Source of the DNA: Bacillales bacterium UBA1709
GTDB taxonomy: Bacteria; Bacillota_I; Bacilli_A; RFN20; UBA1709
DNA: 48,578 nt
Direction of reading: 5' to 3'
Assembly (NCBI GenBank): GCA_002317215.1
Contig: DCJD01000027.1
Location: forward strand, 1-48,578
Shown: positions 8,836-24,888 of the stretch, piece after piece
Layout: every line of letters starts with the position of its first letter
How positions within the stretch are numbered: the stretch's first letter is position 1
Program-made: the position numbers and the translations under genes
Notes under the pieces: generated by a model
Database searches by the model: none
Told to the model about the DNA's origin: nothing
Seen by the model: only the letters and a program-made list of their open reading frames with translations

Positions 8836-9273
8836 CTAATTAAATAAATCATTAAATGATGAGTTTTGACTAGTTATTGTAGCATTAGAATAAGAATAGT
8901 CTAAGATAAACCATTTAGTTGTATCATATGTATGTTCAACATCATTTAATACTTCTTTAGAATCATTAACATATAAAATATTATTAGTTGTACTATCCCA
9001 ATAATAATATGTATTAATAGTGGATGGGGTTAAATCATCTAATAAAGAAGAATAGTTTAATGCTTTATATACATCGGATATAGATTCTATTTTAGAGTCT
9101 ACTTGATAATTTCTTAAGGCATTATTCATTTGTATAACAATATAGTTATCATTACTATTTTTAGCTTTATCTGTAAGTTTTGAATATGTAACTACTCCTA
9201 CTAAAGATAAGATACCAAGTATTGCCATTACTACTAATAATTCTACTAATGTGAAGGAATTTTTCTTATTCAT
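8836..9273 (-). CDS. Type IV pilin-like protein with a class III signal (prepilin N-methylation motif)
   Basis: MNKKNS|FTLVELLVVMAILGILSLVGVVTY, with Glu at +5 and Ser at -1; overlaps the upstream gene by 8 nt. Confidence 0.82.
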   Translation of the reverse strand: MNKKNSFTLVELLVVMAILGILSLVGVVTYSKLTDKAKNSNDNYIVIQMNNALRNYQVDSKIESISDVYKALNYSSLLDDLTPSTINTYYYWDSTTNNILYVNDSKEVLNDVEHTYDTTKWFILDYSYSNATITSQNSSFNDLFN

Positions 9274-11143
9274 ATGCTTTTACCATCCTTACATTATTAT
9301 TTTCTATTTCAACGTTATAAGAGTTAGTTTTTCCATATATATAACCAGTATTATTTTTAATATATGATTTAAACTTAATATTAGTTATGGTACGAGGAAC
9401 ATCATTAATAGTATATGAATACATATCATAACAACCATATGAATTACTATTTATAGTAATTGATGTATTACCAAGAGTAGTATTAATAATTGATCCATGT
9501 TTATTTACAGGAATTAATTTATATTTAGTAGTTAATGAATCACTTACTTCAACATAAAAACCATATTCATAATTATCTATAATTGGTGTTGAAGAGATTA
9601 ATGCTACATCATAAGTATCATTATCTAATGTTAGTGAAGATATTATATCTGTTTCTACTTTGTTAACTTCTTTATGATCCATCTTATATGAATCAATATT
9701 CATATCTTGTCTTACTGAATCAAACATGAAGTCTAATATTTGATTTTGTACTGTAATACTTGTTCCTTCGATAGCACTTCTTAAAGTATTTGAGAAATAT
9801 CCACAACTATGTCCACCAGAGAATATAGAATATTGAGCTTTACCATATGTAGTTTCTTTTGATAAACTCCTTGCTTCATTAATCGCATTAACAAAGAATT
9901 TATTATGATATTTAGATACGTTTTTATCACTACTACCACCTATACTCCATATATTCATATTTAATAAATGACTAGCATTTTCTAAACTACAATCACTAGC
10001 GGCTGGGACAAGAGGAATTGCACAAGCAAATCTATTAGGATAATGATTAATAGTATCCATAGTAAATGCTCCACCAAGAGAACCTCCACTTATATATTGT
10101 CTTCTAGGATCAATATTATATTTAGTCATTAAATCATCAATTAATTGAGTTACTAATTGACTATCTCTACTAGGAGCAGTCATTGAAGCAATATAAGTAT
10201 TTCTATAACTACTAGAATATGAACCATCTCCAGTAACTTCACTAGTTAAACTAATTGCACCAGTTTTAGGATAACTACTGAAATTAGTTAAACTTAAACA
10301 AGCCTTTTTATAAGTAGTGTTATAAACTGAACCAGTCCAGTTAGAATCTGGATAAATATGGATTATAAAACAATCATATTTATCTTCATTAGCACTACTT
10401 GATTTAATTGCACTATCAAGACAATTAAATACACTACTACACCACCAAGCATCTCCTGGTTCTAATGTTTTATTAGATTTATATGTCCCATCGCTATTAA
10501 AGTGTGCACTTTGAGTACCTCCACTTCCAGGACACCAAACTAAAATCGGATATGACTTATTTGGATTATAGTTATATGGAATATGTAACCAATATTTTAA
10601 TGTATCAATATATGTTGTTACGACAGTTTTATTAGGATTAACAGCTTCTTTTATCTTAATACCATATTTAGCTGCTAATTTATCATAATCTTGATCAACT
10701 TTATTTTGACATTCTGCTAGAAAATTATCATATTCTTCAAATGCAAGATATGCTTCATCAATAGCATTAGATGCATTTATATATTCTGGTGAAGTTGAGT
10801 CATAAGTTTGTTCTATTTCACTAAAATAATCTTCCGCATCATAACAAGCTTGCTCTAAAGTATCATAAGTGACTTGAGAATAACCATAATTTTCTAATGA
10901 GATTGATGAATATTCTGCTAGACCTGTTAAATCACTACTATCATATAAGAATCTTTGTTCTTTAGAGACTATTCCACTAAATTCTTTATACATATATTCC
11001 TTAATACCATCTCCATCATAATCATATGAGAACATGGTTTCATATATACTAGCCGCACCAACTCTTTCTTTTTTAGAACCTAAAAAAGAGATAGATAATG
11101 TTACTACAAATATACTTGATAATAGGCATAATTTCTTGTTCAT
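9266..11143 (-). CDS. Secreted multidomain alpha/beta-hydrolase (esterase / PHB-depolymerase-like)
   Basis: Signal peptide; YWLHIPYNYNPNKSYPILVW; nucleophile elbow GGSLGG; Asp in GSSDKNV; His in GGHSC; DYDGDG Ca-loop-like motif. Confidence 0.75.
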   Translation of the reverse strand: MNKKLCLLSSIFVVTLSISFLGSKKERVGAASIYETMFSYDYDGDGIKEYMYKEFSGIVSKEQRFLYDSSDLTGLAEYSSISLENYGYSQVTYDTLEQACYDAEDYFSEIEQTYDSTSPEYINASNAIDEAYLAFEEYDNFLAECQNKVDQDYDKLAAKYGIKIKEAVNPNKTVVTTYIDTLKYWLHIPYNYNPNKSYPILVWCPGSGGTQSAHFNSDGTYKSNKTLEPGDAWWCSSVFNCLDSAIKSSSANEDKYDCFIIHIYPDSNWTGSVYNTTYKKACLSLTNFSSYPKTGAISLTSEVTGDGSYSSSYRNTYIASMTAPSRDSQLVTQLIDDLMTKYNIDPRRQYISGGSLGGAFTMDTINHYPNRFACAIPLVPAASDCSLENASHLLNMNIWSIGGSSDKNVSKYHNKFFVNAINEARSLSKETTYGKAQYSIFSGGHSCGYFSNTLRSAIEGTSITVQNQILDFMFDSVRQDMNIDSYKMDHKEVNKVETDIISSLTLDNDTYDVALISSTPIIDNYEYGFYVEVSDSLTTKYKLIPVNKHGSIINTTLGNTSITINSNSYGCYDMYSYTINDVPRTITNIKFKSYIKNNTGYIYGKTNSYNVEIENNNVRMVKAYE

Positions 11144-11644: not shown

Positions 11645-11669
11645 AAAAAATGAGCTATTGCTCATTTTT
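11645..11669. terminator. Bidirectional terminator
   Basis: AAAAAATGAGC-tatt-GCTCATTTTT. Confidence 0.85.
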
Positions 11670-13059
11670 ATTTAACTTTATATATTTTATTAAGTAATAG
11701 ACAATATATTTTATGTAAACCAAAGGCAGCTAATGATAATAAGTTTATTAGTAAATACATAAATGGCCAGAAATGATAATAGATGGTTCTTGTTTTATTT
11801 AAGAATTCAAACTGTATAACATAATTTACTCTTAATGGAGTAAAATCATAAATAAACTTAACCATATCAATTGCATCATTATTATTTAAATAGAAATATG
11901 AATTAGTTGGATATGCAAGATTGAAATATAGTAGAACTGCAAAATATATCGCATTAAATTTAAATATACCTTTCATATCTTTAAATGTTACTTTTTGATA
12001 ATATCCAAAAGCATATGCAAGCAAAGGAACAAATAATAACATAGAATGGTTAGATAAAAAATGAATTCCACCTCTTGTAAAAATATAATCATCTAATAAA
12101 GGTGTTGGCATTAACATTGCTGCAGTAGCACCTACAACAGCATTAATTAACATCACATTTCTTAGATTCTTATTATCATATATCATAGCAAATGGCATTA
12201 GCATACAGTTTGCCCAACACCAAGTTAATGGATAAGAAGGAGATCCATCTTGATTACTATATAGATACCAATGCCTAATAACTATACATAATGATAAACA
12301 TATTAAGACATATCTTTTTAGTTCCATATCTTTATCTTTAAAATTATGATATAGAATAGTAAACATTATGATAGGTAAAGATAGAGCGATGAAATAAGAG
12401 ATATTAAAATAGTGACAAATTGGTAATATCTCACCAAATAAGTTACAAATAACACCGTTATTTAAAGTAAGTAAACAAAATGCAATTAGTAAATAAATCA
12501 TCTTTTTAATTATGGATTTATTTAATTTAATTAAGTTCTTATCTGAATATTCTTTTAATTCATAAAAACCAATTAAAATCGCACTTAAACATTCTAAAGC
12601 AAAGAAAGAAGTTTTAAATGCAAACATATGATTATCTAAACCACAAAAACTATGAGATATTTGATTAAAGAAAATTAAATCTAACCCATATACAATAGGC
12701 ACAATATAAGCATTTATTCTATACCCACTATCATATTTAAAATATCTACTAATAAGTAAACTAAATGCACATCCTTGAGTCAGTATTCTAATAATTAATA
12801 TTGTTAGATACATAACTCTACTTTCATATATAATCCCATTATTAGCAATATCTTTATTTAAAATTAGAATGTTTTTAACACCTTCAAAATTATCTATTGT
12901 TAATAAGCGGATAATAAAACAAAACATAAATAATCCATATAGCAAAGATTTATATTTATCTTTTGTTTTATTATCTAGTTTAATGCAATTAAAATAACAG
13001 CATCCACTTATGATACCAACGATAAATATATAAATTCCAATTAGGTTTAACATATTCAT
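11668..13059 (-). CDS. Long YwaF/TP0381-like integral membrane protein
   Basis: About 12 hydrophobic segments; C-terminal half has YPLTWC, HSMLLFVP and TNSYFYLN, resembling YwaF. The ATG at 13059 lies 8 nt after a TATAAT. Confidence 0.55.
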   Translation of the reverse strand: MNMLNLIGIYIFIVGIISGCCYFNCIKLDNKTKDKYKSLLYGLFMFCFIIRLLTIDNFEGVKNILILNKDIANNGIIYESRVMYLTILIIRILTQGCAFSLLISRYFKYDSGYRINAYIVPIVYGLDLIFFNQISHSFCGLDNHMFAFKTSFFALECLSAILIGFYELKEYSDKNLIKLNKSIIKKMIYLLIAFCLLTLNNGVICNLFGEILPICHYFNISYFIALSLPIIMFTILYHNFKDKDMELKRYVLICLSLCIVIRHWYLYSNQDGSPSYPLTWCWANCMLMPFAMIYDNKNLRNVMLINAVVGATAAMLMPTPLLDDYIFTRGGIHFLSNHSMLLFVPLLAYAFGYYQKVTFKDMKGIFKFNAIYFAVLLYFNLAYPTNSYFYLNNNDAIDMVKFIYDFTPLRVNYVIQFEFLNKTRTIYYHFWPFMYLLINLLSLAAFGLHKIYCLLLNKIYKVK

Positions 13060-13177
13060 ATTCAAATATTATATATGAATTAGAAATGAATACCTATCTA
13101 TTTATAAGTTATAAATATTTAGGCAAGTTATCTTATTTATATTTTATTATGTTAAAATATAAATGAGGTAAAAGATT

Positions 13178-13672
13178 ATGGAAAGATATAGCGTTGCAAT
13201 AATTACATTGTCTGATAAAGGATCTAAAGGAGAAAGAGTTGATTTATCAATGCCATCTATTAAAGAAGAATTAGATAATTATCCTTTTGATGTTGTTAAA
13301 TATGAATTAATACCAGATGATTTTGATTTAATTGTTAAGGTATTAAATGATTGTGTTAATGAGAATATTAATTTAGTTTTAACTACTGGAGGAACAGGAT
13401 TTAGTGTTAGAGATGTAACTCCAGAAGCTACTAAAAAAGTAATTGAAAAAGAAGCAAATGGTATTGTTGAAGCAATGAGATTTAATAGTATGAAGTTTAC
13501 CAATAGAGCGATGCTATCAAGAGCGGTATGTGGAATAAAGAATAATACTGTTATATTAAATCTTCCAGGATCTCCTAAAGCCTGTAAAGAAAACTTAGAA
13601 TATGTGATTGAACCATTAATACATGGAATAATGACATTAATTGGAAGCAGTAGTGAATGTGGTAGAAAATAA
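13178..13672 (+). CDS. mogA: Molybdopterin adenylyltransferase (MogA/MoaB family)
   Basis: TLSDKG, TTGGTGFSVRDVTPEA, SRAVCG and NLPGSPKA. Confidence 0.92.
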   Translation: MERYSVAIITLSDKGSKGERVDLSMPSIKEELDNYPFDVVKYELIPDDFDLIVKVLNDCVNENINLVLTTGGTGFSVRDVTPEATKKVIEKEANGIVEAMRFNSMKFTNRAMLSRAVCGIKNNTVILNLPGSPKACKENLEYVIEPLIHGIMTLIGSSSECGRK

Positions 13673-14874
13673 TGATTAACGTTGTTAGTTTAAAAGATGC
13701 TCAAAAGAAGATATTTGATAATTTAATAGCATTAGATTTTGAGATTATTAAGATAGAAGACTCTTTAAATAGAGTTCTTTTTGATGATATTAAAGCAAAT
13801 GAAAACTTACCACAATTTAAAAGATCAATAGTAGATGGGTATGCCATTAAATCAAGTAATAGTGTTGGAGTTAATCAAGGAGTACCTGGAATCTTTAAAT
13901 ATAAAGGTGAGATACTAATGGGTCAAGATAATAGTTTTGAATTAAATGATTATGAAACTATTTATGTTCCAACTGGTGGACTTGTTCCTGAGTGTTTCGA
14001 TGCAGTTGCAATGATTGAAAACTGTAAAAAAGTTAATGATGAAGTTTTACTATACTCCCCATTAAAAGCTAATGAGAATATTATTAATGTTGGTGAAGAT
14101 ATTACTAAAGATAATGTAATCATTACTAAAGGAACTATTTTAAATCCATATAATATTGGCTTATTAGCGGGTCTTGGAATTGATAAAGTTAAAGTATATA
14201 AGAAATTTAAATACAGTATTATCTCTACTGGTGATGAGATAATACCTATTACTAATAAACTAGAAGCATGTAAGATAAGAGATATTAATAGTTATGCTAT
14301 TGATGCTAAACTATCTAGTTTTGGAGTATTAGTTAATAAATATCTTATTAAAGATGATTTCGATTTATTAACTAATACTCTAAATAAAGCTTTAAGTGAA
14401 TCAGATTATGTCTTTTTAAGTGGCGGAAGTAGTGTTGGTAAGAAAGATTTTACAATAGATGTAATTAGTCAAATGTCGAAAACAGTCTTATTCCATGGGG
14501 TTTCTATTAAACCTGGTAAACCAACAATGGCTTCTATATTAGATAATAAGATGATTATTGGTTTACCAGGTCATCCAATGGCTTCTCTTATGAGTTTAGA
14601 TTTAATATTTGTGGAATCTTTAAAAAGAAAGATGGGAATAGAATTAGATAATATTGTATTTGCTAAGACTAGTGTTAATTTCCCTTCTAGTCCAGGTAAG
14701 ACTACTATTATGCCACTTAAATTAACAAGAGATAAAGAATGTTTATATGCTTATCCTTTATTCTATAAATCAGGATTAATTAATATATTAAATAAAGCTG
14801 ATGGATATATGGTTATTGATGAGAAGAGTGAAGGGATATACAAGGATAGTATTGTTGAGGTTAGAAAGATATGA
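13672..14874 (+). CDS. moeA: Molybdopterin/tungstopterin metal insertase MoeA
   Basis: RSIVDGYA, PTGGLVP, STGDE, SGGSSVG, IKPGKP and LPGHP. Confidence 0.92.
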   Translation: MINVVSLKDAQKKIFDNLIALDFEIIKIEDSLNRVLFDDIKANENLPQFKRSIVDGYAIKSSNSVGVNQGVPGIFKYKGEILMGQDNSFELNDYETIYVPTGGLVPECFDAVAMIENCKKVNDEVLLYSPLKANENIINVGEDITKDNVIITKGTILNPYNIGLLAGLGIDKVKVYKKFKYSIISTGDEIIPITNKLEACKIRDINSYAIDAKLSSFGVLVNKYLIKDDFDLLTNTLNKALSESDYVFLSGGSSVGKKDFTIDVISQMSKTVLFHGVSIKPGKPTMASILDNKMIIGLPGHPMASLMSLDLIFVESLKRKMGIELDNIVFAKTSVNFPSSPGKTTIMPLKLTRDKECLYAYPLFYKSGLINILNKADGYMVIDEKSEGIYKDSIVEVRKI

Positions 14875-16748
14875 GAAGAACTTATATAGAAAATAATGAT
14901 ATGAGTGTGTTTGATATTTATCTATCTTCTTTTAAGTCTTTAGAAGTTGAAAAAGAGATTATTAAGACTAGTGAATCATTAGATAATGTTACTAGTAAAG
15001 CTATATATGCTAAAAAATGTGATCCTTTATATAATGCTTCAGCTATGGATGGAATAGCAGTTGATTCAAATTTAACACCTACTGCTAATGAACAAAATCC
15101 TTTAGTATTAAAAGAAGGTATAGACTTTGTATATGTTAATACTGGTAATCCTATTGATAGTAGATTTAATTCAGTTATTATGATTGAGAACGTTTTAGTA
15201 AATAATGATAATACAGTATCAATCATAGAACCTTCTTATCCTTGGCAAAACATTAGAGTAAAAGGTGAAAGTATTGTAGAAGGACAAATGGTAGTGCCTT
15301 CTAATCATAAAATAAGACCACAAGATATAGGGGCTATTATAGCTAGTGCTAATATAGATATTGAAGTATATAAAAAAGTAAGAGTAGGTATTATACCAAC
15401 TGGTAATGAGATGGTTAATGATGTTAATGATCTTAAAGTTGGAAAACTAATGGAATCTAATTCTAAGATGTTTAGTAGTAGTGTAATAAGTTTAAATGGA
15501 ATATCTAAAATCTATGATATTTGTTTAGATGATAAAGAAATGCTTAAAGAAAGATTATTATTAGCAGCTAAAGAAAATGATTTAGTTATTATTAATGCTG
15601 GTAGTAGTGCTGGAACTAAAGATTTTACAGTAGAAGTATTAGAAGAGATTGGTGAAGTATATGCTCATGGTTTTGCTATTAAACCTGGTAAACCTACAAT
15701 ACTTGCTAAGATAAATAATAAACCAGTTATTGGGATACCTGGATATCCAGTATCAGCTTTTCTTGTATTTGATTTATTTGTTAAACCATTAATTCTTAAA
15801 ATGAGTGGCTTAAAAATAAATAGCAGAAATAAACTTAAATGTAGATTAACTAGAAATATAGTTAGTAGTTTAAAAAATGCCGAATATGTGAGAATGAATA
15901 TTGGATATGTTAATAATGAATTTGTTGCAACACCATTAGAAAAAGGGGCTGCTCAAATAATGTCTTTAGTAAAAGCGGATGGTTTATTATATATTGATAA
16001 GAATTCTGAAGGATATAATGAAGGAAGTATTGTTGATATTGAATTATTAAAAGATATTGATGAGATAAAGAATAATTTATTAGTTATTGGAAGCCACGAT
16101 TTAATAATTGATGTTTTAAGTGATAAATTAAATATTTCTAGTGCGCACGTTGGAAGTATGGGAGGAATAATTGCTTTAACTAAAAATGAAACTCATATTG
16201 CTCCAATTCATTTGTTAGCAGATGATGGAACTTATAATATTCCTTATATTAAGAAATATTTTAAAGATAGAAAGATGGTATTAATTAAAGGTGTAGGTAG
16301 AATCCAAGGAATTATGCAAAACAATGATACTAATATTACTAGTATTAAAGAGATAAGCGATAATCATATTAGTTTTGCTAATAGACAATATGGATCAGGC
16401 ACTAGAATGCTTTTTGATCATTTATTAAAAGAAAATAGTATAAGTAGTAGTAATATATATGGATATGAAAAAGAATATTCTACTCATTTGTCGGTAGGTG
16501 TCGCAATTGAGAATAATAGTGCTAAATGTGGAATAGGTATAAAAAGTGTTGCTAATATTCTTGGATTAAAGTTTGTTGAAATAGCCAAAGAAGAATATGA
16601 TTTCTTAACTACATATGAAAACTATCAAGATAAAAGAGTTCAAGAATTTATTGAATTACTAAAATCTAAAGAAATTAAAGATAAGTTTATAGAATTTAAA
16701 GATTATGATGTTAGTAAACTAGGAGAAGTTATAATAATAGAATGCTAG
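14871..16748 (+). CDS. moeA: MoeA paralog fused to a C-terminal periplasmic-binding-protein-like domain
   Basis: SAMDGIAV, PTGNE, AGSSAG, IKPGKP and PGYPVS; C-terminal GSHD...GSMGG...ANRQYGSGTR PBP domain. Confidence 0.9.
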   Translation: MRRTYIENNDMSVFDIYLSSFKSLEVEKEIIKTSESLDNVTSKAIYAKKCDPLYNASAMDGIAVDSNLTPTANEQNPLVLKEGIDFVYVNTGNPIDSRFNSVIMIENVLVNNDNTVSIIEPSYPWQNIRVKGESIVEGQMVVPSNHKIRPQDIGAIIASANIDIEVYKKVRVGIIPTGNEMVNDVNDLKVGKLMESNSKMFSSSVISLNGISKIYDICLDDKEMLKERLLLAAKENDLVIINAGSSAGTKDFTVEVLEEIGEVYAHGFAIKPGKPTILAKINNKPVIGIPGYPVSAFLVFDLFVKPLILKMSGLKINSRNKLKCRLTRNIVSSLKNAEYVRMNIGYVNNEFVATPLEKGAAQIMSLVKADGLLYIDKNSEGYNEGSIVDIELLKDIDEIKNNLLVIGSHDLIIDVLSDKLNISSAHVGSMGGIIALTKNETHIAPIHLLADDGTYNIPYIKKYFKDRKMVLIKGVGRIQGIMQNNDTNITSIKEISDNHISFANRQYGSGTRMLFDHLLKENSISSSNIYGYEKEYSTHLSVGVAIENNSAKCGIGIKSVANILGLKFVEIAKEEYDFLTTYENYQDKRVQEFIELLKSKEIKDKFIEFKDYDVSKLGEVIIIEC

Positions 16749-17668
16749 ATAAATTTAACCGTAATATTTCCTATTTAAGATTATCAGTTACTGATTTATG
16801 CAATCTTAATTGTAAATATTGTTCATCATCTAACGAAGTCAAAGTTAGTCACTTTGACCTTTTAAGCAATGAAGAGATGGTTAAAGTTATTAAGGTTTTC
16901 CATAATCTTGGAATTAAGAAAGTTAGAATTACCGGTGGAGAACCATTGCTTAAAAAAGGTCTATGTGACCTAATTAGACAATTATCTACTTTTATTGATG
17001 ATATTGGGATAACTACTAATGGACAGCTACTTCCTGATATGATTAACGATTTAAAGGATGCTGGTTTAAAAAGCATTAATGTTAGTTTAGATACGTTAGA
17101 TCCTATTAAGTATCAATATCTAACTTTAGGTAAGATTGATAATGTATTAAAAGGATTAGAGATGGCATATAATCTTCATCTATCGATCAAGATTAATGCA
17201 GTATTATTAAAAGGAGTCAATGATGAGGAGATATTTGAATTAGCTAAGTATGCTAAAAGTATTAATGCTAAGTTTAGATTTATTGAATTAATGCCTTTTA
17301 CAACAACATTAGATTATTTTAATAAATATTATATAAGTAGTGATGAGATTATTAAGAAATATAACCTTATATATATTACATCTAATGGAACTTCAGAGTA
17401 TTATAAGAATGCACAAGGATTAGAGATTGGATTTATTCGACCAATTAGTCATAAATTCTGTAAAGAATGTAATAGAATTAGAATGACAAGTTTTGGAAAA
17501 ATAATCCCATGTCTTCATTCTAAAGATACTTATGATATAAAAGAATATATAGATGATGAGAAAAGATTAGAAGAAAGATTAATAGAAATTATTAATTTAA
17601 AACCTAAAGAGCATCATATTAATGAAGGGAATATTCAAAGTTTGGATATGCGAAAGATAGGAGGATAG
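16742..17668 (+). CDS. moaA: GTP 3',8-cyclase (radical SAM)
   Basis: CNLNCKYC, TGGEPLL, C-terminal CxxC-x13-C and terminal IGG. Confidence 0.95.
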   Translation: MLDKFNRNISYLRLSVTDLCNLNCKYCSSSNEVKVSHFDLLSNEEMVKVIKVFHNLGIKKVRITGGEPLLKKGLCDLIRQLSTFIDDIGITTNGQLLPDMINDLKDAGLKSINVSLDTLDPIKYQYLTLGKIDNVLKGLEMAYNLHLSIKINAVLLKGVNDEEIFELAKYAKSINAKFRFIELMPFTTTLDYFNKYYISSDEIIKKYNLIYITSNGTSEYYKNAQGLEIGFIRPISHKFCKECNRIRMTSFGKIIPCLHSKDTYDIKEYIDDEKRLEERLIEIINLKPKEHHINEGNIQSLDMRKIGG

Positions 17669-17671
17669 AAT

Positions 17672-18145
17672 ATGGATAATAAATTAACACATTTTAATGA
17701 AGAAGGACTATCAAAGATGGTTGATGTTAGTGATAAGATAGTCACACATAGAGAAGCAAGAGCTAAGATTGAAGTTCATATGGATAAAGATACTATTGAG
17801 AAGATTAGACAAGGTAGTATTTCTAAAGGCAACGTATTAGCGGTTGCTCAAGTTGCTGGAATATGTGCTGCTAAAAAGAATTATGAATTAATTCCAATGT
17901 GTCATCAAATACCATTAACTGGTGTAGATATTAAATATGAATATAAAGATTATGGAATAGAGATAACTAGTATTGTTAAGACAGATTATAAAACAGGAGT
18001 TGAAATGGAAGCATTAACGGCTTGTAGTATAGCAGCATTAACAATATATGATATGTGTAAAGCTATTGATAAGAAGATGTATTTTACTTCTTGTAGATTA
18101 GTATATAAAGAAGGCGGAAAAAGTGGGGTATTTGAAAATGACTAA
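17672..18145 (+). CDS. moaC: Cyclic pyranopterin monophosphate synthase
   Basis: [34 protein letters not shown] and IYDMCKA. Confidence 0.95.
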
Positions 18146-18593
18146 AATTGGAAGTGTAATTGCTGTTAATATCAGTGAGGTAAAAGGTGTTGTTAAACAT
18201 CCGGTTGATTTTGTAGAAACTATCGTTGATATGGGAATAAAGGGTGATGCTCATGCAGGACCTGGATTAAGACAAGTTAGTTTACTTGCTAAAGAATCAA
18301 TTGATAAGTTTCAAGAAATGAAAGGCAAGATTAGTGGAATTTGTGAAGGCAAATTTGCTGAAAATATTACTACTAGTGGAGTTATATTATATGAACTACC
18401 AGTTGGAACAAGACTTATGATTGGAACTAGTTTAATGGAAGTAAGTCAAATCGGTAAGAAATGTCATGCTGATCAAGGCTGCGAAATATCTAAAATATTT
18501 GGTACTTGTGTAATGCCAAAAGAAGGTATCTTTACAATTGTTATTGAACCTGGAATTATCAAAGCAGGTGACGATATTTTATTAGTTGACTAA
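18138..18593 (+). CDS. MOSC-domain sulfur-carrier protein
   Basis: [29 protein letters not shown] and C-VMPKEGIF; the ATG at 18138 overlaps the moaC stop. Confidence 0.88.
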
Positions 18594-18618
18594 AAAAGAG
18601 ATCAATGATCTCTTTTTT
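18592..18618. terminator. Bidirectional terminator between the MOSC gene and tupC
   Basis: AAAAAAGAGATC-aat-GATCTCTTTTTT. Confidence 0.9.
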
Positions 18619-19265
18619 TATTTAGAATATAAATCTATAAAGTTTTTAATGATAGGATTTGTTGTTTTATCAATAGTTTTTGGTGTTAATGAATCATCAA
18701 TTACTTTTCCTTTATCTAAAAAGATTATATGATCTGCTAATCTTTTAGCTTGGGATATTGAATGAGTAATTAGTATAATGGTTGTTTTATTTTCTATATT
18801 AGTTTTCTTAATTAGTTCTTCGGCTTTTATCATAGCATCAATATCCATTGATGCTGTTGGTTCATCTAATATAATAGTTTTTGAATTACTTAATAAAGTT
18901 CTTATTAAAGATACCTTAGATAATTCTCCTCCACTTAATCCTTTAGCGTTTTGTTTAGCTATCTTATTTAGACCAAATATTGTCATATATTCTTCTACTT
19001 TTTCTTTATCAGATATATTAAGCGAAGCGTTTTTATAAACCGACATATTAAATGCAAATGATTTTTGAGGCATATATATAACATTATTATCTAGTTCTAT
19101 ATGTTTATCGTTTTTAATAACTTTACTAATAATCTTACCAAGTGTTGATTTACCAGATCCATTTGGTCCAATGATGGCATAAACTTTACCATCATCAAAA
19201 GAAATATTATCAATATCTAATACAACCCTATCTTTATATTTCTTATAAATATTATTTAGAATCAT
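18618..19265 (-). CDS. tupC: Tungstate ABC transporter ATPase
   Basis: GPNGSGKST, LSGGE and LDEPTASMD; last gene of the tup operon. Confidence 0.85.
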   Translation of the reverse strand: MILNNIYKKYKDRVVLDIDNISFDDGKVYAIIGPNGSGKSTLGKIISKVIKNDKHIELDNNVIYMPQKSFAFNMSVYKNASLNISDKEKVEEYMTIFGLNKIAKQNAKGLSGGELSKVSLIRTLLSNSKTIILDEPTASMDIDAMIKAEELIKKTNIENKTTIILITHSISQAKRLADHIIFLDKGKVIDDSLTPKTIDKTTNPIIKNFIDLYSK

Positions 19266-19953
19266 ATTTAAACCTCATTTGAATAATATAAACAATAATA
19301 TTAAAAATTAATGAAAGGAAAATAAGAATAATACCTAGTGCTATTCCATAACTAAACATACCCATATTGGTATATCGCATAATAGCAGTTGTCATTACAT
19401 CACTTTTCCAAACAATAGCTCCACCGATCATCGATACTGCTCCTACTTCCGCAATTGATCTAGAGAAGCCAAGTAAATATGTAGTAATTAATTGAAACTT
19501 CGTTTCATTAATTGTTAATAGCATTGTTTTAACAAATCCTAATTTAAGTCCTTTAGTTGTTTCTTGGATAGAAGTAGCAATTGAACTTACAAATGTGGAT
19601 ATTGTTGCAATTAAAACTGGGGTAATTAAAATTATTTGAGCAACAACCATTCCCTTTATATTATGAAAAAACTTTAATCCACCCAACGCTCCAACTGGTA
19701 CAAATAACATATAGCATATTAAACCACAAACAACAGGAGGCACTCCTGTTAATGTATTGTTTATTACGGTAATTATATGTTTGCCTTTAAAATTAAAGTA
19801 TCCAAGTAATATACCTAAAGGTATTGCTAATAGTAAAGAAATTAAAGAGCTATATAGACATAGCTTTGCTGTTCGCAAAACTATGTCTATTAACTCCTCA
19901 TTTCCTCCGGATAATATTAATTCAATGGCTTGTTTGAAGCCTCTTTCAATCAT
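19252..19953 (-). CDS. tupB: Tungstate ABC transporter permease
   Basis: TGVPPVVCGL, GMVVAQ, FSRSIAEVGAVSMIGG and VMTTAI. Confidence 0.9.
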   Translation of the reverse strand: MIERGFKQAIELILSGGNEELIDIVLRTAKLCLYSSLISLLLAIPLGILLGYFNFKGKHIITVINNTLTGVPPVVCGLICYMLFVPVGALGGLKFFHNIKGMVVAQIILITPVLIATISTFVSSIATSIQETTKGLKLGFVKTMLLTINETKFQLITTYLLGFSRSIAEVGAVSMIGGAIVWKSDVMTTAIMRYTNMGMFSYGIALGIILIFLSLIFNIIVYIIQMRFKYDSK

Positions 19954-19956
19954 TTA

Positions 19957-20922
19957 TTATTTTCCAAAGTTTTTGTAGTAAGTTAAGAATGTTGCTTTAT
20001 CTGATAAGATATAAGCATTTGTATTTTCAGCATCTAATAGTGCAGCACCCATTCCTTTTCCAGTACTATTGTACCATGAAGCATAAGCTTGGAAGCTAGA
20101 TGCTTCTGCTGTAATACCTAATGCTGTTGGCCATAATGAAATTTCTTTTGTATGAGTTCCTGAATTATCCCCTCTTGAAACGAAAGCATATTGTTCAGTT
20201 GAGATTTTTTCAAAAGCTTGTTTAACAGTCATTTCAGTAGTGATGTTTAAAGGATTAGATTTAGGTCCAACTAATACGAAATAGTTGTACATGAAATTTA
20301 ATCTTGCAGCACTTTGACCAGTGATAATTCTAGCATATCCATCATTTACAAATGCTTCTTCTTGAGTTTTTGAGTGAACAAGAATTAAGTCTGCTGCGCC
20401 ATCTTTAGCAGCTTGAATAGCTTTTCCTGTACCTGCTGAATAGATTTCGATATCATAACCATATTTTGTTTCAAAAATAGGTAAAACATATCCAAGTAAT
20501 CCTGAATCGTTAACTGATGTAGTTGTAGATAATCTAATATCTTTAGTTTCACTAGTAGCACTTGGAATAGTTGCAGTGCTAGTTGGATGGCCATCTTTTA
20601 AGTAGAATAAGTATTCACCATATTCCGCATAACCATAACCTGCGCAAGCATTTAAACCTTCTTCAGATAAGAACCAGTTAATTAATGCATCAGCACCAAC
20701 AGTATTGATTGAAACTTCTGGTTTAGATGCAAAAGCGGCTGCATTTGGATCTACAGCTAGTAATGAATAATTATTAATCATATCACTATCTGATTCTAAA
20801 ATAATTTTTAAATTACTTACTGGTGTTTCTTCTTTATCTTTGTTTTTACCACAGCTACTTAAAGCAGCTACTGCTCCAAAAACAACAAAAAGAGCACTTA
20901 AAAATTTGAACTTTCTTTGCAT
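19957..20922 (-). CDS. tupA: Tungstate-binding lipoprotein, circularly permuted
   Basis: Lipobox LSSC24; TTTSVNDSG, GTGKA, VHSK and SRGDNSGTHTKE TupA signatures; the segment that is normally C-terminal sits at aa 38-108. Confidence 0.88.
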   Translation of the reverse strand: MQRKFKFLSALFVVFGAVAALSSCGKNKDKEETPVSNLKIILESDSDMINNYSLLAVDPNAAAFASKPEVSINTVGADALINWFLSEEGLNACAGYGYAEYGEYLFYLKDGHPTSTATIPSATSETKDIRLSTTTSVNDSGLLGYVLPIFETKYGYDIEIYSAGTGKAIQAAKDGAADLILVHSKTQEEAFVNDGYARIITGQSAARLNFMYNYFVLVGPKSNPLNITTEMTVKQAFEKISTEQYAFVSRGDNSGTHTKEISLWPTALGITAEASSFQAYASWYNSTGKGMGAALLDAENTNAYILSDKATFLTYYKNFGK

Positions 20923-20925
20923 ATA

Positions 20926-21030
20926 TTTCTCCTTTTCGCAATGGAAGGCTTATTCATTTCTAAATAAACCCCGGCTTACATCCATGGACTATGTAATTCT
21001 TTAGGATATTTAAGCTCGGATATAAGAGAT
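20926..21030 (-). ncRNA. Moco/tungsten-cofactor riboswitch (Rfam MOCO_RNA_motif-like) in the tupA leader
   Basis: Minus strand UCCGAGC...CCUAAAG...GCCGGG...UUAUUUA-GAAA-UGAAUAA-GCCUUCCAU...GAAAAGGAGA. It has a GNRA-capped stem, and the 3' strand contains the SD 5 nt before the ATG. Confidence 0.85.
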
Positions 21031-21180
21031 GTTCTTTCTCTTACATATTAACTATACCAAAAAAATACGGTTTGTTTAACAAATTAAACAAAATATATAA
21101 GCCATATATTTTGTATTGGTTTATTGTTTTAATCTTTATAATTTGATAAATTATAATTACTTATAAGGAGATTTTTTGAC

Positions 21181-21555
21181 ATGTATAGAATAGATACGAA
21201 AAAATGTGCCGATTGTGGATATTGTGCATATGTATGTCCATTTGGTGCTATTACTCATAATGTTGAGGAAAAATATTATGAGATTGATCAAGAAAAATGT
21301 AAGAAATGTGGATTATGTTTTAAAGCTTGTATAAGCGGATTTGTCTTAAAAGATGAAGAGGATAAACCAGTTGAAAACATTCACATTAGTGATGATTGTA
21401 TTGGTTGTACTTTATGTTCTAAAGTATGTCCAGTTAGTGCAATTAAAGGTCAAGTTAAAATGAAACATGAAATTGATCCTGCTAAATGTATTAAATGTGG
21501 GGTTTGTGCAACAAAATGTGCTAAGAAAGCAATTGTTGTGGAAAGAGGAAAGTAG
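21181..21555 (+). CDS. Polyferredoxin with four CxxCxxCxxxC motifs
   Basis: CADCGYCAYVC, CKKCGLCFKAC, CIGCTLCSKVC and CIKCGVCATKC; SD AAGGAG. Confidence 0.92.
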   Translation: MYRIDTKKCADCGYCAYVCPFGAITHNVEEKYYEIDQEKCKKCGLCFKACISGFVLKDEEDKPVENIHISDDCIGCTLCSKVCPVSAIKGQVKMKHEIDPAKCIKCGVCATKCAKKAIVVERGK

Positions 21556-21563
21556 GTGTAATT

Positions 21564-23462
21564 ATGGCAACAAAATATAAATCATATTGGGGTAAAGTTG
21601 TTAAAGTTAATTTAACAACAAAAGAAGTTACAGACTACGAAATTAGTGACAAAGATAGATTATTATATCTTGGTGGAAAGTGTATTGCTGCTAAGATTAT
21701 TTACGATAATATTAAATCTAAAATTGATCCATTAAGTGAAGAGAACATGATTGTTATTTCAACATCACCATTAAATGCTGTTGGAGCACCTTGTTCTTCT
21801 AGATTTAATACATCAACTATTTCACCATTAACTGGTTATTATACTTCCAGTAACTGTGGTGGTAACTTTGGTTTATCTTTAAAAAGAGCTGGTATTGATG
21901 CTTTAATTATTACTGGAAAAGCAAAAGATAAGACATATTTAGTTATTACTAATAATGGTATTGAATTTAAAGATGCTACTCCATATTGGGGTATGAAGAC
22001 TCAAGAAGTTCAAGAAGCTATACCAGATAAAGGTGCTAAATTTGTTATTGGACCTGCTGGTGAAAACTTAGTTAGATATGCTTGTGTTATCTCTGGTGAA
22101 AGAGCTAGTGGTAGAGGTGGAGTTGGTGCAGTATTTGGTTCTAAAAACTTAAAAGGTTTAGTTGCTTTTGGTATGAAATCTCCAGAAGTATATAATCCTA
22201 AAAAATTCCATAAGAATAATATATTATGGACTAAGAGATTAAGAACTCACCCAACTACTGGTAAGATTTTACCAGAACTTGGTACCGCATCATTAGTAAC
22301 GCCAATGCATGCTAAGAACTTACTTGCAACAAATAACTATAGAACTGGAAAGTTTGAACACTTTGATGATGTAAGTGGAGAAACTTTAAGAGATGAATAT
22401 CTAGTTAGAAACGATGGTTGTACAACTTGTCCTATTAGATGTGCTAGAGTTGTTACTGTAGATGGAAAGAGTGTTAAAGGACCAGAAGTTGAAACTATCG
22501 GTTTATTTGGACCTAATATTAGAAACAATAATATGCAAGCTATCCTAGACTGGAACTATTATATGGATGATCTCGGACTTGATACTATTAGCTGTGGTAA
22601 TACTATTTCATGGGCTATGGAAGCAAATGAAAAAGGATTCTGGAAGAATGGATTAGAATTTGGAAAGATTGATAATATTACTCAAACTCTTGATGATATT
22701 GCTCATAGAAAAGGTATCGGTAATGAACTTGCTGAAGGATCTAAGAGATTAAGTGAAAAATATGGTGGCAAAGAATTTGCTATGAACGTTAAAGGTATGG
22801 AACTTGCCGCTTATGAACCTCGTGGTGCTGTTGGACAAGGCTTAGGTTATGCTGTTGCTAACCGTGGTGGATGCCATCTTAATGGTGGATATTTAGTTGT
22901 TCTTGAAGGCTTAGGATTATCTGTAAATCCTTACACTCCAAAAGGAAAAGCCGCATTCTGTGTTATGTTCCAAGACTTAATGGAAGCATGTAGTGCTGGT
23001 GGTAACTGTTTATTTACAACTTATGCTTTCTTCCCATCTATTTTAATTGCTAAACCTAATAGTTGGATTACTAGAACTGTTAATAAAGTATTTACTAGTT
23101 TTGGTGGTATTGTTACTGTTTTATTAAAGAATCCACGTATTGCTGCAATTCATTTACCACATATGCTACCTCACACTAAGGCATTAAAATATGCTACTGG
23201 TATGTATATGGATTTAGGTAAATTCTTACAAATAGGTGAAAGAGGATACAACTTAGAAAGATTAATTGATGTAAATCTTGGTGTAAGTAAGAAAGATGAT
23301 GAATTGCCATTAAGATTAACAACTGAATTACAAATTGCAACTAATAAAGATTCTAAAGTTCCTTTAGATGTATTAAGAGCTAAATATTATAAAGTTAGAG
23401 GTTGGGATGAAAATGGTATTCCAACAGATAAATTATTAAAGAAATTAAAGATTGAAAAATAA
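21564..23462 (+). CDS. aor: Tungsten-dependent aldehyde:ferredoxin oxidoreductase (AOR/WOR family)
   Basis: GRGGVGAVFGSKNLK, CTTCPIRC plus GNCLF (4Fe-4S ligands), GPEVET, DDLGLD (DxxGxD), RGGCH and RGWDENGIP. Confidence 0.93.
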   Translation: MATKYKSYWGKVVKVNLTTKEVTDYEISDKDRLLYLGGKCIAAKIIYDNIKSKIDPLSEENMIVISTSPLNAVGAPCSSRFNTSTISPLTGYYTSSNCGGNFGLSLKRAGIDALIITGKAKDKTYLVITNNGIEFKDATPYWGMKTQEVQEAIPDKGAKFVIGPAGENLVRYACVISGERASGRGGVGAVFGSKNLKGLVAFGMKSPEVYNPKKFHKNNILWTKRLRTHPTTGKILPELGTASLVTPMHAKNLLATNNYRTGKFEHFDDVSGETLRDEYLVRNDGCTTCPIRCARVVTVDGKSVKGPEVETIGLFGPNIRNNNMQAILDWNYYMDDLGLDTISCGNTISWAMEANEKGFWKNGLEFGKIDNITQTLDDIAHRKGIGNELAEGSKRLSEKYGGKEFAMNVKGMELAAYEPRGAVGQGLGYAVANRGGCHLNGGYLVVLEGLGLSVNPYTPKGKAAFCVMFQDLMEACSAGGNCLFTTYAFFPSILIAKPNSWITRTVNKVFTSFGGIVTVLLKNPRIAAIHLPHMLPHTKALKYATGMYMDLGKFLQIGERGYNLERLIDVNLGVSKKDDELPLRLTTELQIATNKDSKVPLDVLRAKYYKVRGWDENGIPTDKLLKKLKIEK

Positions 23463-23464
23463 AT

Positions 23465-23710
23465 ATGATTAAAGTTTTATTATATGGTGAAGCACGCCTT
23501 ATATTTAATGTTAAAGAGATAGAAGAAAAAGGCAGTACTGTAAAGGAATTGTTAAGTAATCTAGCTCTTAGATATGATAAAAAATATAAGGATCTTAAGA
23601 AATTCTTGATATATGTTAATGACGTTAACATTACTGCTTTACGTATGTTTAGAACTAAATTAAATGATGGTGATGTTATTATGATGCTTTCTCCATCCTC
23701 AGGAGGTTAG
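23465..23710 (+). CDS. moaD: MoaD/ThiS sulfur carrier
   Basis: Ubiquitin-like size and C-terminal SSGG. Confidence 0.88.
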   Translation: MIKVLLYGEARLIFNVKEIEEKGSTVKELLSNLALRYDKKYKDLKKFLIYVNDVNITALRMFRTKLNDGDVIMMLSPSSGG

Positions 23711-23711
23711 T

Positions 23712-24317
23712 ATGATTAATAAAACAATAGCCATCGTTGGTCTTGGGGGATTGGGCGGATTTGTTTGTGAATATATTGGTAGACTTGGATTTGAGAAAAT
23801 TATTCTTATCGATAAAGATAAATTTTCTAAATCTAATATTAATCGTCAGCTCCTATGCACTACAAATACATTAGATACTTATAAGACAGATAATTACGAA
23901 GAAAAACTGAAACTAATTAGTGATTCTAAAGTAATAAATCATAAAGAATTTATCACTTTAGATAATCTATATTTATTAGATGGTGCAGACATTATTATTG
24001 ATTGCTTAGACAACATTTCAACTCGTTTAATTATTGAGAAATATGCTTCTAATAATAACAAAGTTATTATTCATGGTGCAATTGGAGAAAAAACTGGACA
24101 AGTATGTTTATGTTTACCTTCTTATAAGATGTTATCAAAATTATATAAAAATACTTCTGAAATTAAAAAACAAACATACGGTTATGCAGTATCCTTAATT
24201 GCTAGTTTAGAAGTTGAAGTATTAATGAAATATATCAACAATGATTATGCTGATCTAGTAGATAAAGTCATCTATGTTGATCTAAATGATTTAGAAATTA
24301 AAAAGCTTAAATTATAA
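23712..24317 (+). CDS. moeB: MoeB/ThiF-family adenylyltransferase
   Basis: VGLGGLGG, DKDKFSKSNINRQ and DCLDNISTR; no Zn-binding CxxC pairs. Confidence 0.82.
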   Translation: MINKTIAIVGLGGLGGFVCEYIGRLGFEKIILIDKDKFSKSNINRQLLCTTNTLDTYKTDNYEEKLKLISDSKVINHKEFITLDNLYLLDGADIIIDCLDNISTRLIIEKYASNNNKVIIHGAIGEKTGQVCLCLPSYKMLSKLYKNTSEIKKQTYGYAVSLIASLEVEVLMKYINNDYADLVDKVIYVDLNDLEIKKLKL

Positions 24318-24324
24318 ATCTAAT

Positions 24325-24352
24325 AAAGTAAGGTTATATAGCCTTACTTTTT
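24325..24352 (+). terminator. Terminator of the aor operon
   Basis: AAAGTAAGGT-tatata-GCCTTACTTT followed by TT. Confidence 0.8.
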
Positions 24353-24368
24353 ATATGCTTATGCATAT

Positions 24369-24397
24369 TTGACCTAAATCAAATATAGATTTATAAT
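24369..24397 (+). promoter_or_regulatory. Near-consensus sigma-A promoter
   Basis: TTGACC-17 bp-TATAAT. Confidence 0.8.
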
Positions 24398-24415: not shown

Positions 24416-24856
24416 ATGGAATTTCTAGTTGTTGTTAAAGGATTATTCGATAGCGTTAAGGAACAATTCTTTGGAATGTATAAGAGAATGAAATTAGTTT
24501 TTGCTATTTTTATTACAATTCCTCTTGCTCCATTTATAGTTGCTTTTGCAGCTGTTATGTTAGTTTTATATTTAGTAAACGTATTCTTCCATGGTGCTAA
24601 AATGCCATGTGATTATGTTAAATCTAACTTAACTGAAGATGGAAATAAGGTTAAACCAGTTACTCAAGCTATTATCTATTTTGTTGGATATGGCGTAATT
24701 ATGTTTAATTATGTTTTACTTGGTTTCTTTGCTTTAAGTATCTTTACATTATATTTCTTAGCATCATGCTTTGGATTCGTAGTTGCTCTTGGAAAAATTA
24801 AATTCCAACCAATTATCAATGCTAAAGAAGAAAAAGAAGTAAAAGTAGTTGAATAA
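24416..24856 (+). CDS. Hypothetical membrane protein, monocistronic
   Basis: Two long hydrophobic stretches; own promoter, SD GGAGGA and terminator. Confidence 0.7.
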   Translation: MEFLVVVKGLFDSVKEQFFGMYKRMKLVFAIFITIPLAPFIVAFAAVMLVLYLVNVFFHGAKMPCDYVKSNLTEDGNKVKPVTQAIIYFVGYGVIMFNYVLLGFFALSIFTLYFLASCFGFVVALGKIKFQPIINAKEEKEVKVVE

Positions 24857-24861
24857 TTGAT

Positions 24862-24888
24862 AAAGGCTCAAATGAGCCTTTTATTTTT
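24862..24888 (+). terminator. Rho-independent terminator
   Basis: AAAGGCTCA-aa-TGAGCCTTT followed by a T-rich tail. Confidence 0.8.

Follow-up and report, generated by a model that had tools for sequence, protein, structure and literature searches.

A putative tungsten-oxidoreductase island without MoaE in a genome-reduced gut bacterium of the Bacilli

Gene neighbourhoods in which an aldehyde:ferredoxin oxidoreductase (AOR) is accompanied by MoaD- and MoeB-like proteins, and in some cases by a ferredoxin, have been described as "tungsten cofactor biosynthesis" neighbourhoods that occur sporadically in distant lineages and are possibly mobile (Iyer, Burroughs and Aravind 2006, PMC1779556). Among the tungsten oxidoreductases (WORs), those of Class II consist of a large subunit, WorL, and a small subunit, WorS, with PfASOR and CbGOR as characterised representatives (Putumbaka et al. 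2026, PMC13328260). Aptamers of the molybdenum cofactor (Moco) motif that lack the P3 stem, in turn, were shown by Regulski et al. (2008, PMC2408646) to be associated nearly always with the metabolism of the tungsten cofactor. Here we describe an island of 13 genes, at positions 13178-24317 of a contig from Bacillales bacterium UBA1709 (DCJD01000027.1, assembly GCA_002317215.1; the whole analysed stretch of 48,578 nucleotides is referred to below as the window), which brings together genes for tungstate uptake, for synthesis of the tungsten cofactor (Wco) and for an AOR-family enzyme. We estimate at roughly 80% the probability that this island is a functional, horizontally exchanged tungsten module of the type "one enzyme, one cofactor", a reading that is based on sequence comparison.

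The island also bears on a gap in the understanding of molybdopterin (MPT) synthesis in anaerobes that has been noted since at least 2008-2009, namely that some of these organisms make the cofactor without MoaE. Acetogens, Dehalobacter and Geobacter metallireducens lack MoaE, yet possess working molybdenum or tungsten enzymes (PMC5039349, PMC4751268, PMC2700814). In G. metallireducens, moaD, moeB and mosC are present and moaE is absent, and the way in which the cofactor is made was stated to be unknown (PMC2700814); for Dehalobacter, two MOSC proteins were put forward as possible substitutes for molybdopterin synthase (Tang et al. 2016, PMC4751268). In the literature we found no resolved substitute for MoaE, only statements of the gap and this kind of speculation on one occasion.

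The enzyme, its metal and the cofactor pathway

Searches with Pfam and NCBIfam profiles recovered 13 intact genes in three units (Table 1), the first on the plus strand, the second on the minus strand and convergent on the first, and the third again on the plus strand; every island gene is single-copy in the genome. An original prediction, made from the letters of the window and its open reading frames (ORFs), had placed the same 13 genes at these positions, between clean terminators and within an AT-rich, reduced genome, and on all these counts it held. Both hairpins are present, the one between the MOSC gene and tupC being a perfect 10-bp stem that, together with its A- and T-runs, occupies the whole of the 24 nt separating the two stop codons, and the assembly comprises 836,904 bp in 27 contigs, 93% complete and ~28% GC, the genome being of about 0.9 Mb. 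The assignment to tungsten was likewise upheld, by the Tup-type transporter, a riboswitch without P3, the two MoeA paralogues, an AOR nearest to that of Pyrococcus furiosus (PfAOR) and the lack of enzymes of the DMSO-reductase family in the genomes searched. The claim that the island is self-contained and covers cofactor synthesis stands in part: MoaA, MoaC, MogA, MoeA, MoaD and MoeB are there, and MoaE is nowhere in the assembly. The riboswitch on tupA is an element that the earlier description had missed.

The best solved relative of the large subunit is PfAOR (1aor, E=1e-119), followed by the AOR structures 9mqx (chain D) and 9g7j and by AorB of Aromatoleum aromaticum (8c0z). When the sequence is aligned with 1aor and numbered accordingly, the pterin and active-site residues T243, E313, Y427 and H448 are all kept, as are the [4Fe-4S] ligands C288, C291, C295 and C494; the list of cofactor-coordinating residues for aldehyde-oxidising WORs was taken from PMC13328260. 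Two departures are apparent: D489 of the second pterin motif is S in this protein, and ~40 residues are inserted behind position 488 (about 489-542), forming a largely hydrophobic stretch that is common to the whole clade and might serve as a docking surface for WorS. The 16-cysteine WorS gene ends 8 nt upstream of AOR, and no WorN-type gene is found among the island genes. This arrangement fits a ferredoxin-linked enzyme of Class II, with WOR clade 81 (all Class II, gut) as a candidate clade for the large subunit.

A search for enzymes of the DMSO-reductase family (PF00384) found none in eight island-bearing genomes including the host, the xanthine-oxidase and sulfite-oxidase families not having been searched. 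Because no such enzyme was found and the island genes are single-copy, the cofactor pathway serves the AOR as one client, as far as tested. The genome encodes one iron-containing alcohol dehydrogenase (Fe-ADH), which is 43% identical to the one found in an operon with AOR in another genome of the family (G005). In G003 and G005, and also on two metagenome contigs, Fe-ADH genes belong to the operon or adjoin it. This context favours a putative module that couples acid, aldehyde and alcohol, whether in the direction of aldehyde detoxification that feeds ferredoxin or in that of acid-to-alcohol reduction. For the tungsten enzymes of gut and rumen microbes, a role in the detoxification of dietary aldehydes and an influence on the output of short-chain fatty acids and alcohols are assumed.

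Indications of the metal come from the transporter and its regulation. TupA is the sole NCBIfam family matched by the binding protein, which contains the motif STTTS at residues 132-136, and the models for TupB and TupC are matched as well, all three with scores under the equivalog cut-offs (Table 1). Compared by BLASTP with TupA of "Bacillales bacterium UBA1737", a relative discussed below, the host protein is circularly permuted (residues 129-318 correspond to 51-242 and residues 36-119 to 246-336), and this permutation may explain its low score against the TupA model. The riboswitch overlaps the ribosome-binding site and the start codon of tupA, and the columns of the P3 stem are deleted in its alignment to the RF01055 model. 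The same riboswitch is present upstream of tupA in two relatives, G008 and UBA1737; on units 1 and 3 none was detected at E<=1.

On the basis of homology, which underlies every step of the following scheme, the module can be proposed to work as follows. TupABC would import tungstate, and the P3-less, Wco-sensing riboswitch would shut off Tup translation when the cofactor is plentiful. MoaA and MoaC would make cyclic pyranopterin monophosphate (cPMP), while the short ThiF-like E1 enzyme, which has a GLGGLGG loop and no CxxC zinc motifs, would activate the GG-ended MoaD-like carrier, the presumed donor of the dithiolene sulfurs. The conversion of cPMP to MPT would be carried out by a protein other than MoaE, with the conserved small MOSC protein as the leading candidate. 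MogA would adenylate MPT, and the two MoeA paralogues (32% identical to each other), one of them bearing a domain of the oxyanion-binding type, would insert tungsten. The finished cofactor would go to the single client, a Class II WOR composed of WorL (the AOR) and the four-cluster WorS, which would interconvert aldehydes and acids with ferredoxin and, running in the reverse direction together with the Fe-ADH of the genome, could reduce acids to alcohols.

MoaE and the small MOSC protein

A six-frame search of the host assembly with the MoaE profile (PF02391) produced no match, not even a weak one; in a set of 14 control genomes the same search recovered this family from 11. None of the 12 family genomes, of which five bear an AOR, encodes MoaE, and among 17 more genomes with an AOR, drawn from six further families of the class, there is one weak match, so that 21 of 22 AOR-bearing genomes, belonging to seven families in total, lack it. 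The MoaE-positive genome is the same single one in the class-level and phylum-level samples (401 genomes each). MoaA, MoaC, MogA/MoaB and MoeA of the canonical pathway are all encoded; of the pair that constitutes MPT synthase, a MoaD-like protein is encoded and MoaE is not. Since MoaE is absent, another protein must catalyse the step from cPMP to MPT.

The one island gene without an assigned step encodes a small MOSC protein, the start of which is probably the ATG at 18138, as judged by alignment with homologues. It corresponds to the C-terminal half of a MoaC/MOSC fusion model (NF011069, E=9e-52) and belongs to a large, strongly conserved family that counts no fewer than 7,981 homologues (E<=1e-10), the top matches of which, including one from Acetobacterium wieringae, are ~60% identical. 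An orthologue (42-71% identity, ~150 aa) is encoded in 21 of the 22 AOR-bearing genomes, usually on the same contig as the AOR. The invariant features include four residues (C114, H115, C120 and C129) as well as the motifs GDAH, RQxSLL, FAENxTT and MPxEGIF. An AlphaFold2 model (predicted local distance difference test, pLDDT, 85) shows the MOSC β-barrel known from YuaD, YiiM and mARC rather than the MoaE fold, and Foldseek matched this model to 1oru, 1o65 and 5yhi with probability 1.0 and TM-scores of 0.62-0.67.

Domain fusions place the same protein close to the missing activity. The MOSC domain is fused to a ThiF-like E1 in family genome G005 and on metagenome contigs, and the other fusion partners of the subfamily are MogA/MoaB (by far the commonest), MoaC (five clusters) and XdhC (one cluster). 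As cPMP is the product of MoaC, MoaD is charged by the E1 and MPT is the substrate of MogA, three of these four partners bracket the MPT-synthase step. The operons on one strand that contain the MOSC-ThiF fusion are also without MoaE.

We tentatively propose, with somewhat less than even confidence, that the MOSC protein (18138-18593) is a non-homologous replacement of MoaE, acting as the catalytic partner of MoaD in the conversion of cPMP to molybdopterin, and that this would apply to MoaE-less anaerobes generally, that is, to acetogens, Dehalobacter and G. metallireducens as well as to the reduced gut Bacilli. The proposal follows from three observations: the MOSC gene is the sole unassigned member of a set of 13 genes which has to be enough for one tungsten enzyme, it occurs in all but one of the 22 AOR-bearing genomes, of which 21 are without MoaE, and its fusion partners MoaC, ThiF-like E1 and MogA bracket the step in question. 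Alternatively, the protein could relay sulfur onto MoaD, in the manner of the rhodanese domain of MOCS3/MoeZ, or act as a cofactor chaperone or in a terminal-sulfido step. Comprising 13 genes that serve a single client enzyme without MoaE, the island offers a minimal system in which the replacement of MoaE could be tested, and should the MOSC proposal prove true, it would represent a minimal natural gene set for the synthesis of the tungsten cofactor.

The MOSC-ThiF fusions measure 347-366 aa and are located at L012:11329-12372 (-) (in G005), L016:7791-8891 and L018:8919-10019. Their operons, all genes of which are on one strand, consist of TupABC, MoeA, MoeA-PBP, MoaA, MoaC, MogA, the MOSC-ThiF fusion, AOR, MoaD, a two-cluster ferredoxin and Fe-ADH. 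Members of the MOSC subfamily are also found fused to a helix-turn-helix domain of the LysR type.

Distribution, exchange and alternatives

Homologues of the AOR are encoded in 5 of the 12 family genomes, four of them being orthologues (100, 74, 70 and 56% identity) and the fifth, in G008, a 36%-identical paralogue that stands beside the same cofactor cassette. No AOR was found in the 49 genomes from the other families of the order, and within the class it occurs in 18 of 401 genomes and 15 of 219 genera. The Tenericutes/Mollicutes were reported to be without any use of molybdenum (Peng et al. 2018, PMC6147048). The same 13-gene set, with its units in other orders and orientations, was recognised in UBA1737, RGIG8124, G003, G005 and G008. 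Among species representatives the closest AOR, 86% identical, is that of UBA1737, a genome that is not among the 12 of the family. UvrA of UBA1737 shares 58% identity with the host protein, compared with 63-72% within the family, and five housekeeping proteins encoded beside its island are 36-41% identical to their host counterparts.

The G008 enzyme (L013:8944-10944 (+), 666 aa) has no adjoining WorS gene. By UvrA identity (70%), G008 is the family genome closest to the host; it has kept the transporter and the cofactor cassette, with a MOSC protein 71% identical to that of the host.

Phylogenetic trees of the enzyme, of the cofactor genes and of UvrA as a proxy for the species do not agree. 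In the UvrA tree the eight family rows are split from UBA1737, RGIG8124 and a third metagenome-assembled genome (MAG) with support of 100/100. In the AOR tree, with the same support, the host is sister to UBA1737, and the AOR of G005 groups elsewhere, in another clade next to sequences labelled Gottschalkiaceae. The approximately unbiased (AU) test rejected family monophyly of the AOR both for the seven placed genomes (p=2.9e-9) and for 40 sequences (p=1.9e-6). A tree of concatenated MoeA-PBP and MoaA also pairs the host with UBA1737 (89/92), the path between them amounting to 0.64 changes per site, and here too family monophyly is rejected (p=1.2e-4, AU). Because the enzyme and the cofactor genes share a history that is at odds with the species proxy, these comparisons point to horizontal movement of the whole module between lineages. 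The original prediction had regarded the island as unexpected for its lineage and as perhaps a portable module, and the sparse distribution and the two sets of trees bear this out; it had also left room for a routine, vertically inherited cluster or a chimeric contig, and the findings (the trees for the former, core-gene flanks and native composition for the latter) went against both. Two family genomes that belong to one genus each have a uvrA gene with a single in-frame TAA (G007:C35:5737-8547 and G010:C20:1244-4054), which could reflect an error of sequencing, loss of gene function or recoding.

The evidence for mobility is phylogenetic, and the island does not qualify as a mobile integrative element. 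No integrase, transposase or flanking repeat was found among its annotated neighbours, and no clean insertion site could be recognised in the closed, AOR-negative family genome G002: synteny there extends over HtrA-like genes, DnaB and RplI to GdpP, with ssb and unrelated genes beyond. It could be argued that the island is ancestral in the family and was inherited vertically with repeated loss, the conflicts between trees being caused by hidden paralogy or differences in rate. The presence of AOR and cofactor cassette in five of the 12 family genomes, the sister relationship of G003 and G006 in both the UvrA and the AOR trees, the native composition and the lack of integration genes and repeats are all compatible with such a history. 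We nevertheless consider it unlikely, since it has to accommodate a host AOR that is sister to that of a genome placed firmly outside the family, the rejection of family monophyly for enzyme and cofactor genes alike, the position of the G005 enzyme beside Gottschalkiaceae-labelled sequences, the pairing of the same cassette with a 36%-identical AOR in G008 and the absence of AOR from the 49 genomes of the other families of the order. A further alternative would be a mis-binned or chimeric contig that brought in the island from another organism; the host, a tiny bacterium of the gut/rumen type, is indeed known from a 27-contig MAG, and near homologues of its AOR carry the label "Clostridia bacterium". 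This is scarcely credible, as core genes bracket the island on one contig (YqeY upstream; YybS-GdpP-DnaB, UvrA and SecA downstream), the genes downstream are syntenic with those of a closed family genome, and the composition is native: in tetranucleotide distance from the genome the island ranks at the 17th percentile among all windows, its GC content is 0.289 (genome mean, 0.286), and GC at third codon positions is 10-21%, the same as in UvrA, SecA and DnaB. In view of the flanking core genes and the tetranucleotide and third-position composition, the contig is not chimeric and the island belongs to the host genome.

The metal could in principle be molybdenum, with a transporter that takes up molybdate and an AOR-family enzyme that carries Mo-MPT like YdhV of Escherichia coli. 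Binding proteins of the Tup/Mod type are able to bind both oxyanions, the sub-threshold scores of TupA, TupB and TupC are in keeping with such a system, and sequence by itself gives no proof of the metal; we judge this account quite improbable, given that the binding protein matches no NCBIfam family other than TupA and has the STTTS motif, that the riboswitch is of the P3-less variant correlated with tungsten use, and that the closest solved relatives, PfAOR and A. aromaticum AorB, are tungsten enzymes. It is very unlikely, too, that the pathway is broken at the MPT-synthase step, with MPT or cofactor obtained from neighbours or the island in decay, as the absence of MoaE and a tiny genome that is probably host- or community-dependent might suggest. 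All 13 reading frames are intact, MoaA, MoaC, MoaD and MoeB are conserved although they would be useless for salvage, the same MoaE-less set recurs across the seven families, and the MoaE-less acetogens, Dehalobacter and G. metallireducens cited above are cultured organisms in which the molybdenum or tungsten enzymes work. The reading of the island as a functional, horizontally exchanged tungsten module has to be held against several facts that weigh against it. No public sequencing runs containing the stretch or the AOR operon were found, the pathway is formally incomplete without a recognisable MoaE, TupA, TupB and TupC all score under their equivalog cut-offs, an AOR-family protein can carry molybdenum, as YdhV does, and the search for further clients covered one enzyme family. 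Moreover, the species proxy consists of a single gene, UvrA, together with the family grouping, and the fully native composition of the island carries no mark of recent transfer, so that the transfer would have to be old or the donor of similar composition. If the tungsten-module reading is correct, bacteria of ~0.9 Mb, in a group reported to be without molybdenum or tungsten use, devote ~1.3% of the genome to one tungsten enzyme and exchange the whole kit horizontally, which would document tungsten use and whole-kit exchange in genome-reduced, Mollicutes-like gut Bacilli.

The features of the island are collected in Table 1. Upstream of it, on the minus strand, are genes for an S9-peptidase/esterase-like protein (9266-11143) and for a 465-aa membrane protein with a TMEM164-family domain (11668-13065); the genome encodes a distant paralogue of each at another locus. 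An ORF of 146 aa (24416-24856, plus strand) separates the island from yybS-gdpP and is served by a separate promoter close to the consensus (TTGACC-17-TATAAT, 24369-24397) and a separate terminator (24862-24881); considered as a divergent MoaE, it was ruled out, the product being a hydrophobic membrane protein with no family match.

Table 1. Genes and regulatory elements of the island, with positions in the window and the matches on which the assignments are based
Feature	Position	Strand	Evidence
mogA/moaB-type MPT adenylyltransferase, 164 aa	13178..13672	+	PF00994 E=3e-31; TIGR00177 molyb_syn domain 119 bits, above cut-off
moeA paralogue 1, predicted metal insertion, 400 aa	13672..14874	+	MoeA_N, MoCF_biosynth and MoeA_C domains
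moeA paralogue 2 with PBP_like oxyanion-binding-type domain, 625 aa	14871..16748	+	PF12727 E=2.8e-59; NF011068 662 bits vs 534-bit cut-off
moaA, GTP 3',8-cyclase, radical SAM	16742..17668	+	TIGR02666 316 bits vs 284-bit cut-off
moaC, cPMP synthase	17672..18145	+	PF01967 E=2e-53; NF006870 213 bits, above cut-off
Small YuaD/YiiM-like MOSC protein, 156 aa	18123..18593	+	PF03473
Bidirectional intrinsic terminator between convergent MOSC gene and tupC	18594..18616	.	AAAAGAGATC-AAT-GATCTCTTTT, A-run and T-run at sides, read from sequence
tupC, ABC ATPase	18618..19265	-	PF00005; NF041774 TupC model E=1.8e-23, under cut-off
tupB, permease	19252..19953	-	NF038017 147 bits, above cut-off; TupB model E=3.9e-37
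tupA, predicted tungstate-binding lipoprotein	19957..20922	-	NF041772 TupA model E=4.6e-45
Moco/Wco riboswitch, P3-less "Tuco" type	20914..21033	-	RF01055 52.8 bits (gathering score 36), E=1.7e-10
worS, small subunit, four [4Fe-4S] clusters, 124 aa	21181..21555	+	16 Cys, four CxxCxxCxxxC motifs; four Fer4 matches
aor/worL, predicted tungstopterin aldehyde:ferredoxin oxidoreductase, 632 aa	21564..23462	+	AFOR_N (PF02730) E=1e-66; AFOR_C (PF01314) E=2e-113
moaD/ThiS-like sulfur carrier ("WorX"), 81 aa, C-terminus ...SSGG	23465..23710	+	PF02597; translation
Short ThiF/MoeB-like E1, 201 aa	23712..24317	+	PF00899 E=8.5e-33; translation
Terminator hairpin just after moeB	24325..24352	+	AAAGTAAGG-8 nt-CCTTACTTT, then T-run

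Comparison with described systems

Clusters of AOR, MoaD and MoeB, WORs of Class II and MoaE-less pathways have all been described previously. As in the neighbourhoods reported in PMC1779556, the AOR gene is directly followed here by those for a carrier of the MoaD type and an E1 of the MoeB type, and genes for MoeA and a 4Fe-4S ferredoxin are close by; in contrast to them, the present island has the full set for uptake, synthesis and enzyme in a genome of about 0.9 Mb, and MoaE, an occasional member of those neighbourhoods, is absent from the whole genome. The riboswitch is a regular member of the Moco/Tuco class (RF01055, PMC2408646), a P3-less aptamer that precedes a tungstate transporter gene and holds the ribosome-binding site within the 3' strand of P1; it shows no notable difference from that class, and the lineage lies outside the original survey.

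The enzyme resembles the Class II WORs (PMC13328260) in its large AFOR subunit encoded beside a small subunit with four [4Fe-4S] clusters, in the presumed ferredoxin partner and in the adjoining ThiS-like "WorX". It differs from PfASOR and CbGOR in that its large subunit is nearer to the clade-87 AORs (PfAOR, AaAOR) and contains the ~40-residue insert. With PfAOR itself it shares the catalytic and pterin residues and the four cluster cysteines; PfAOR, however, is a Class I homodimer without WorS, whereas the protein described here has the D489 to S replacement and the extra loop and comes from a mesophilic host.

The closest parallel for the cofactor pathway is provided by the MoaE-less acetogens, Dehalobacter and G. 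metallireducens, which likewise have moaA, moaC, moeA and mogA (and moaD and moeB where reported) together with at least one mosC gene in the cluster. Those organisms have large genomes, many molybdenum or tungsten enzymes and many candidate genes, whereas the present case consists of a 0.84-Mb genome, one client and a 13-gene cluster whose sole unassigned member is MOSC, with a MOSC-E1 fusion in a sister genome. The MoaE-less design was thus already known, and what is new is the smallness of this instance of it.

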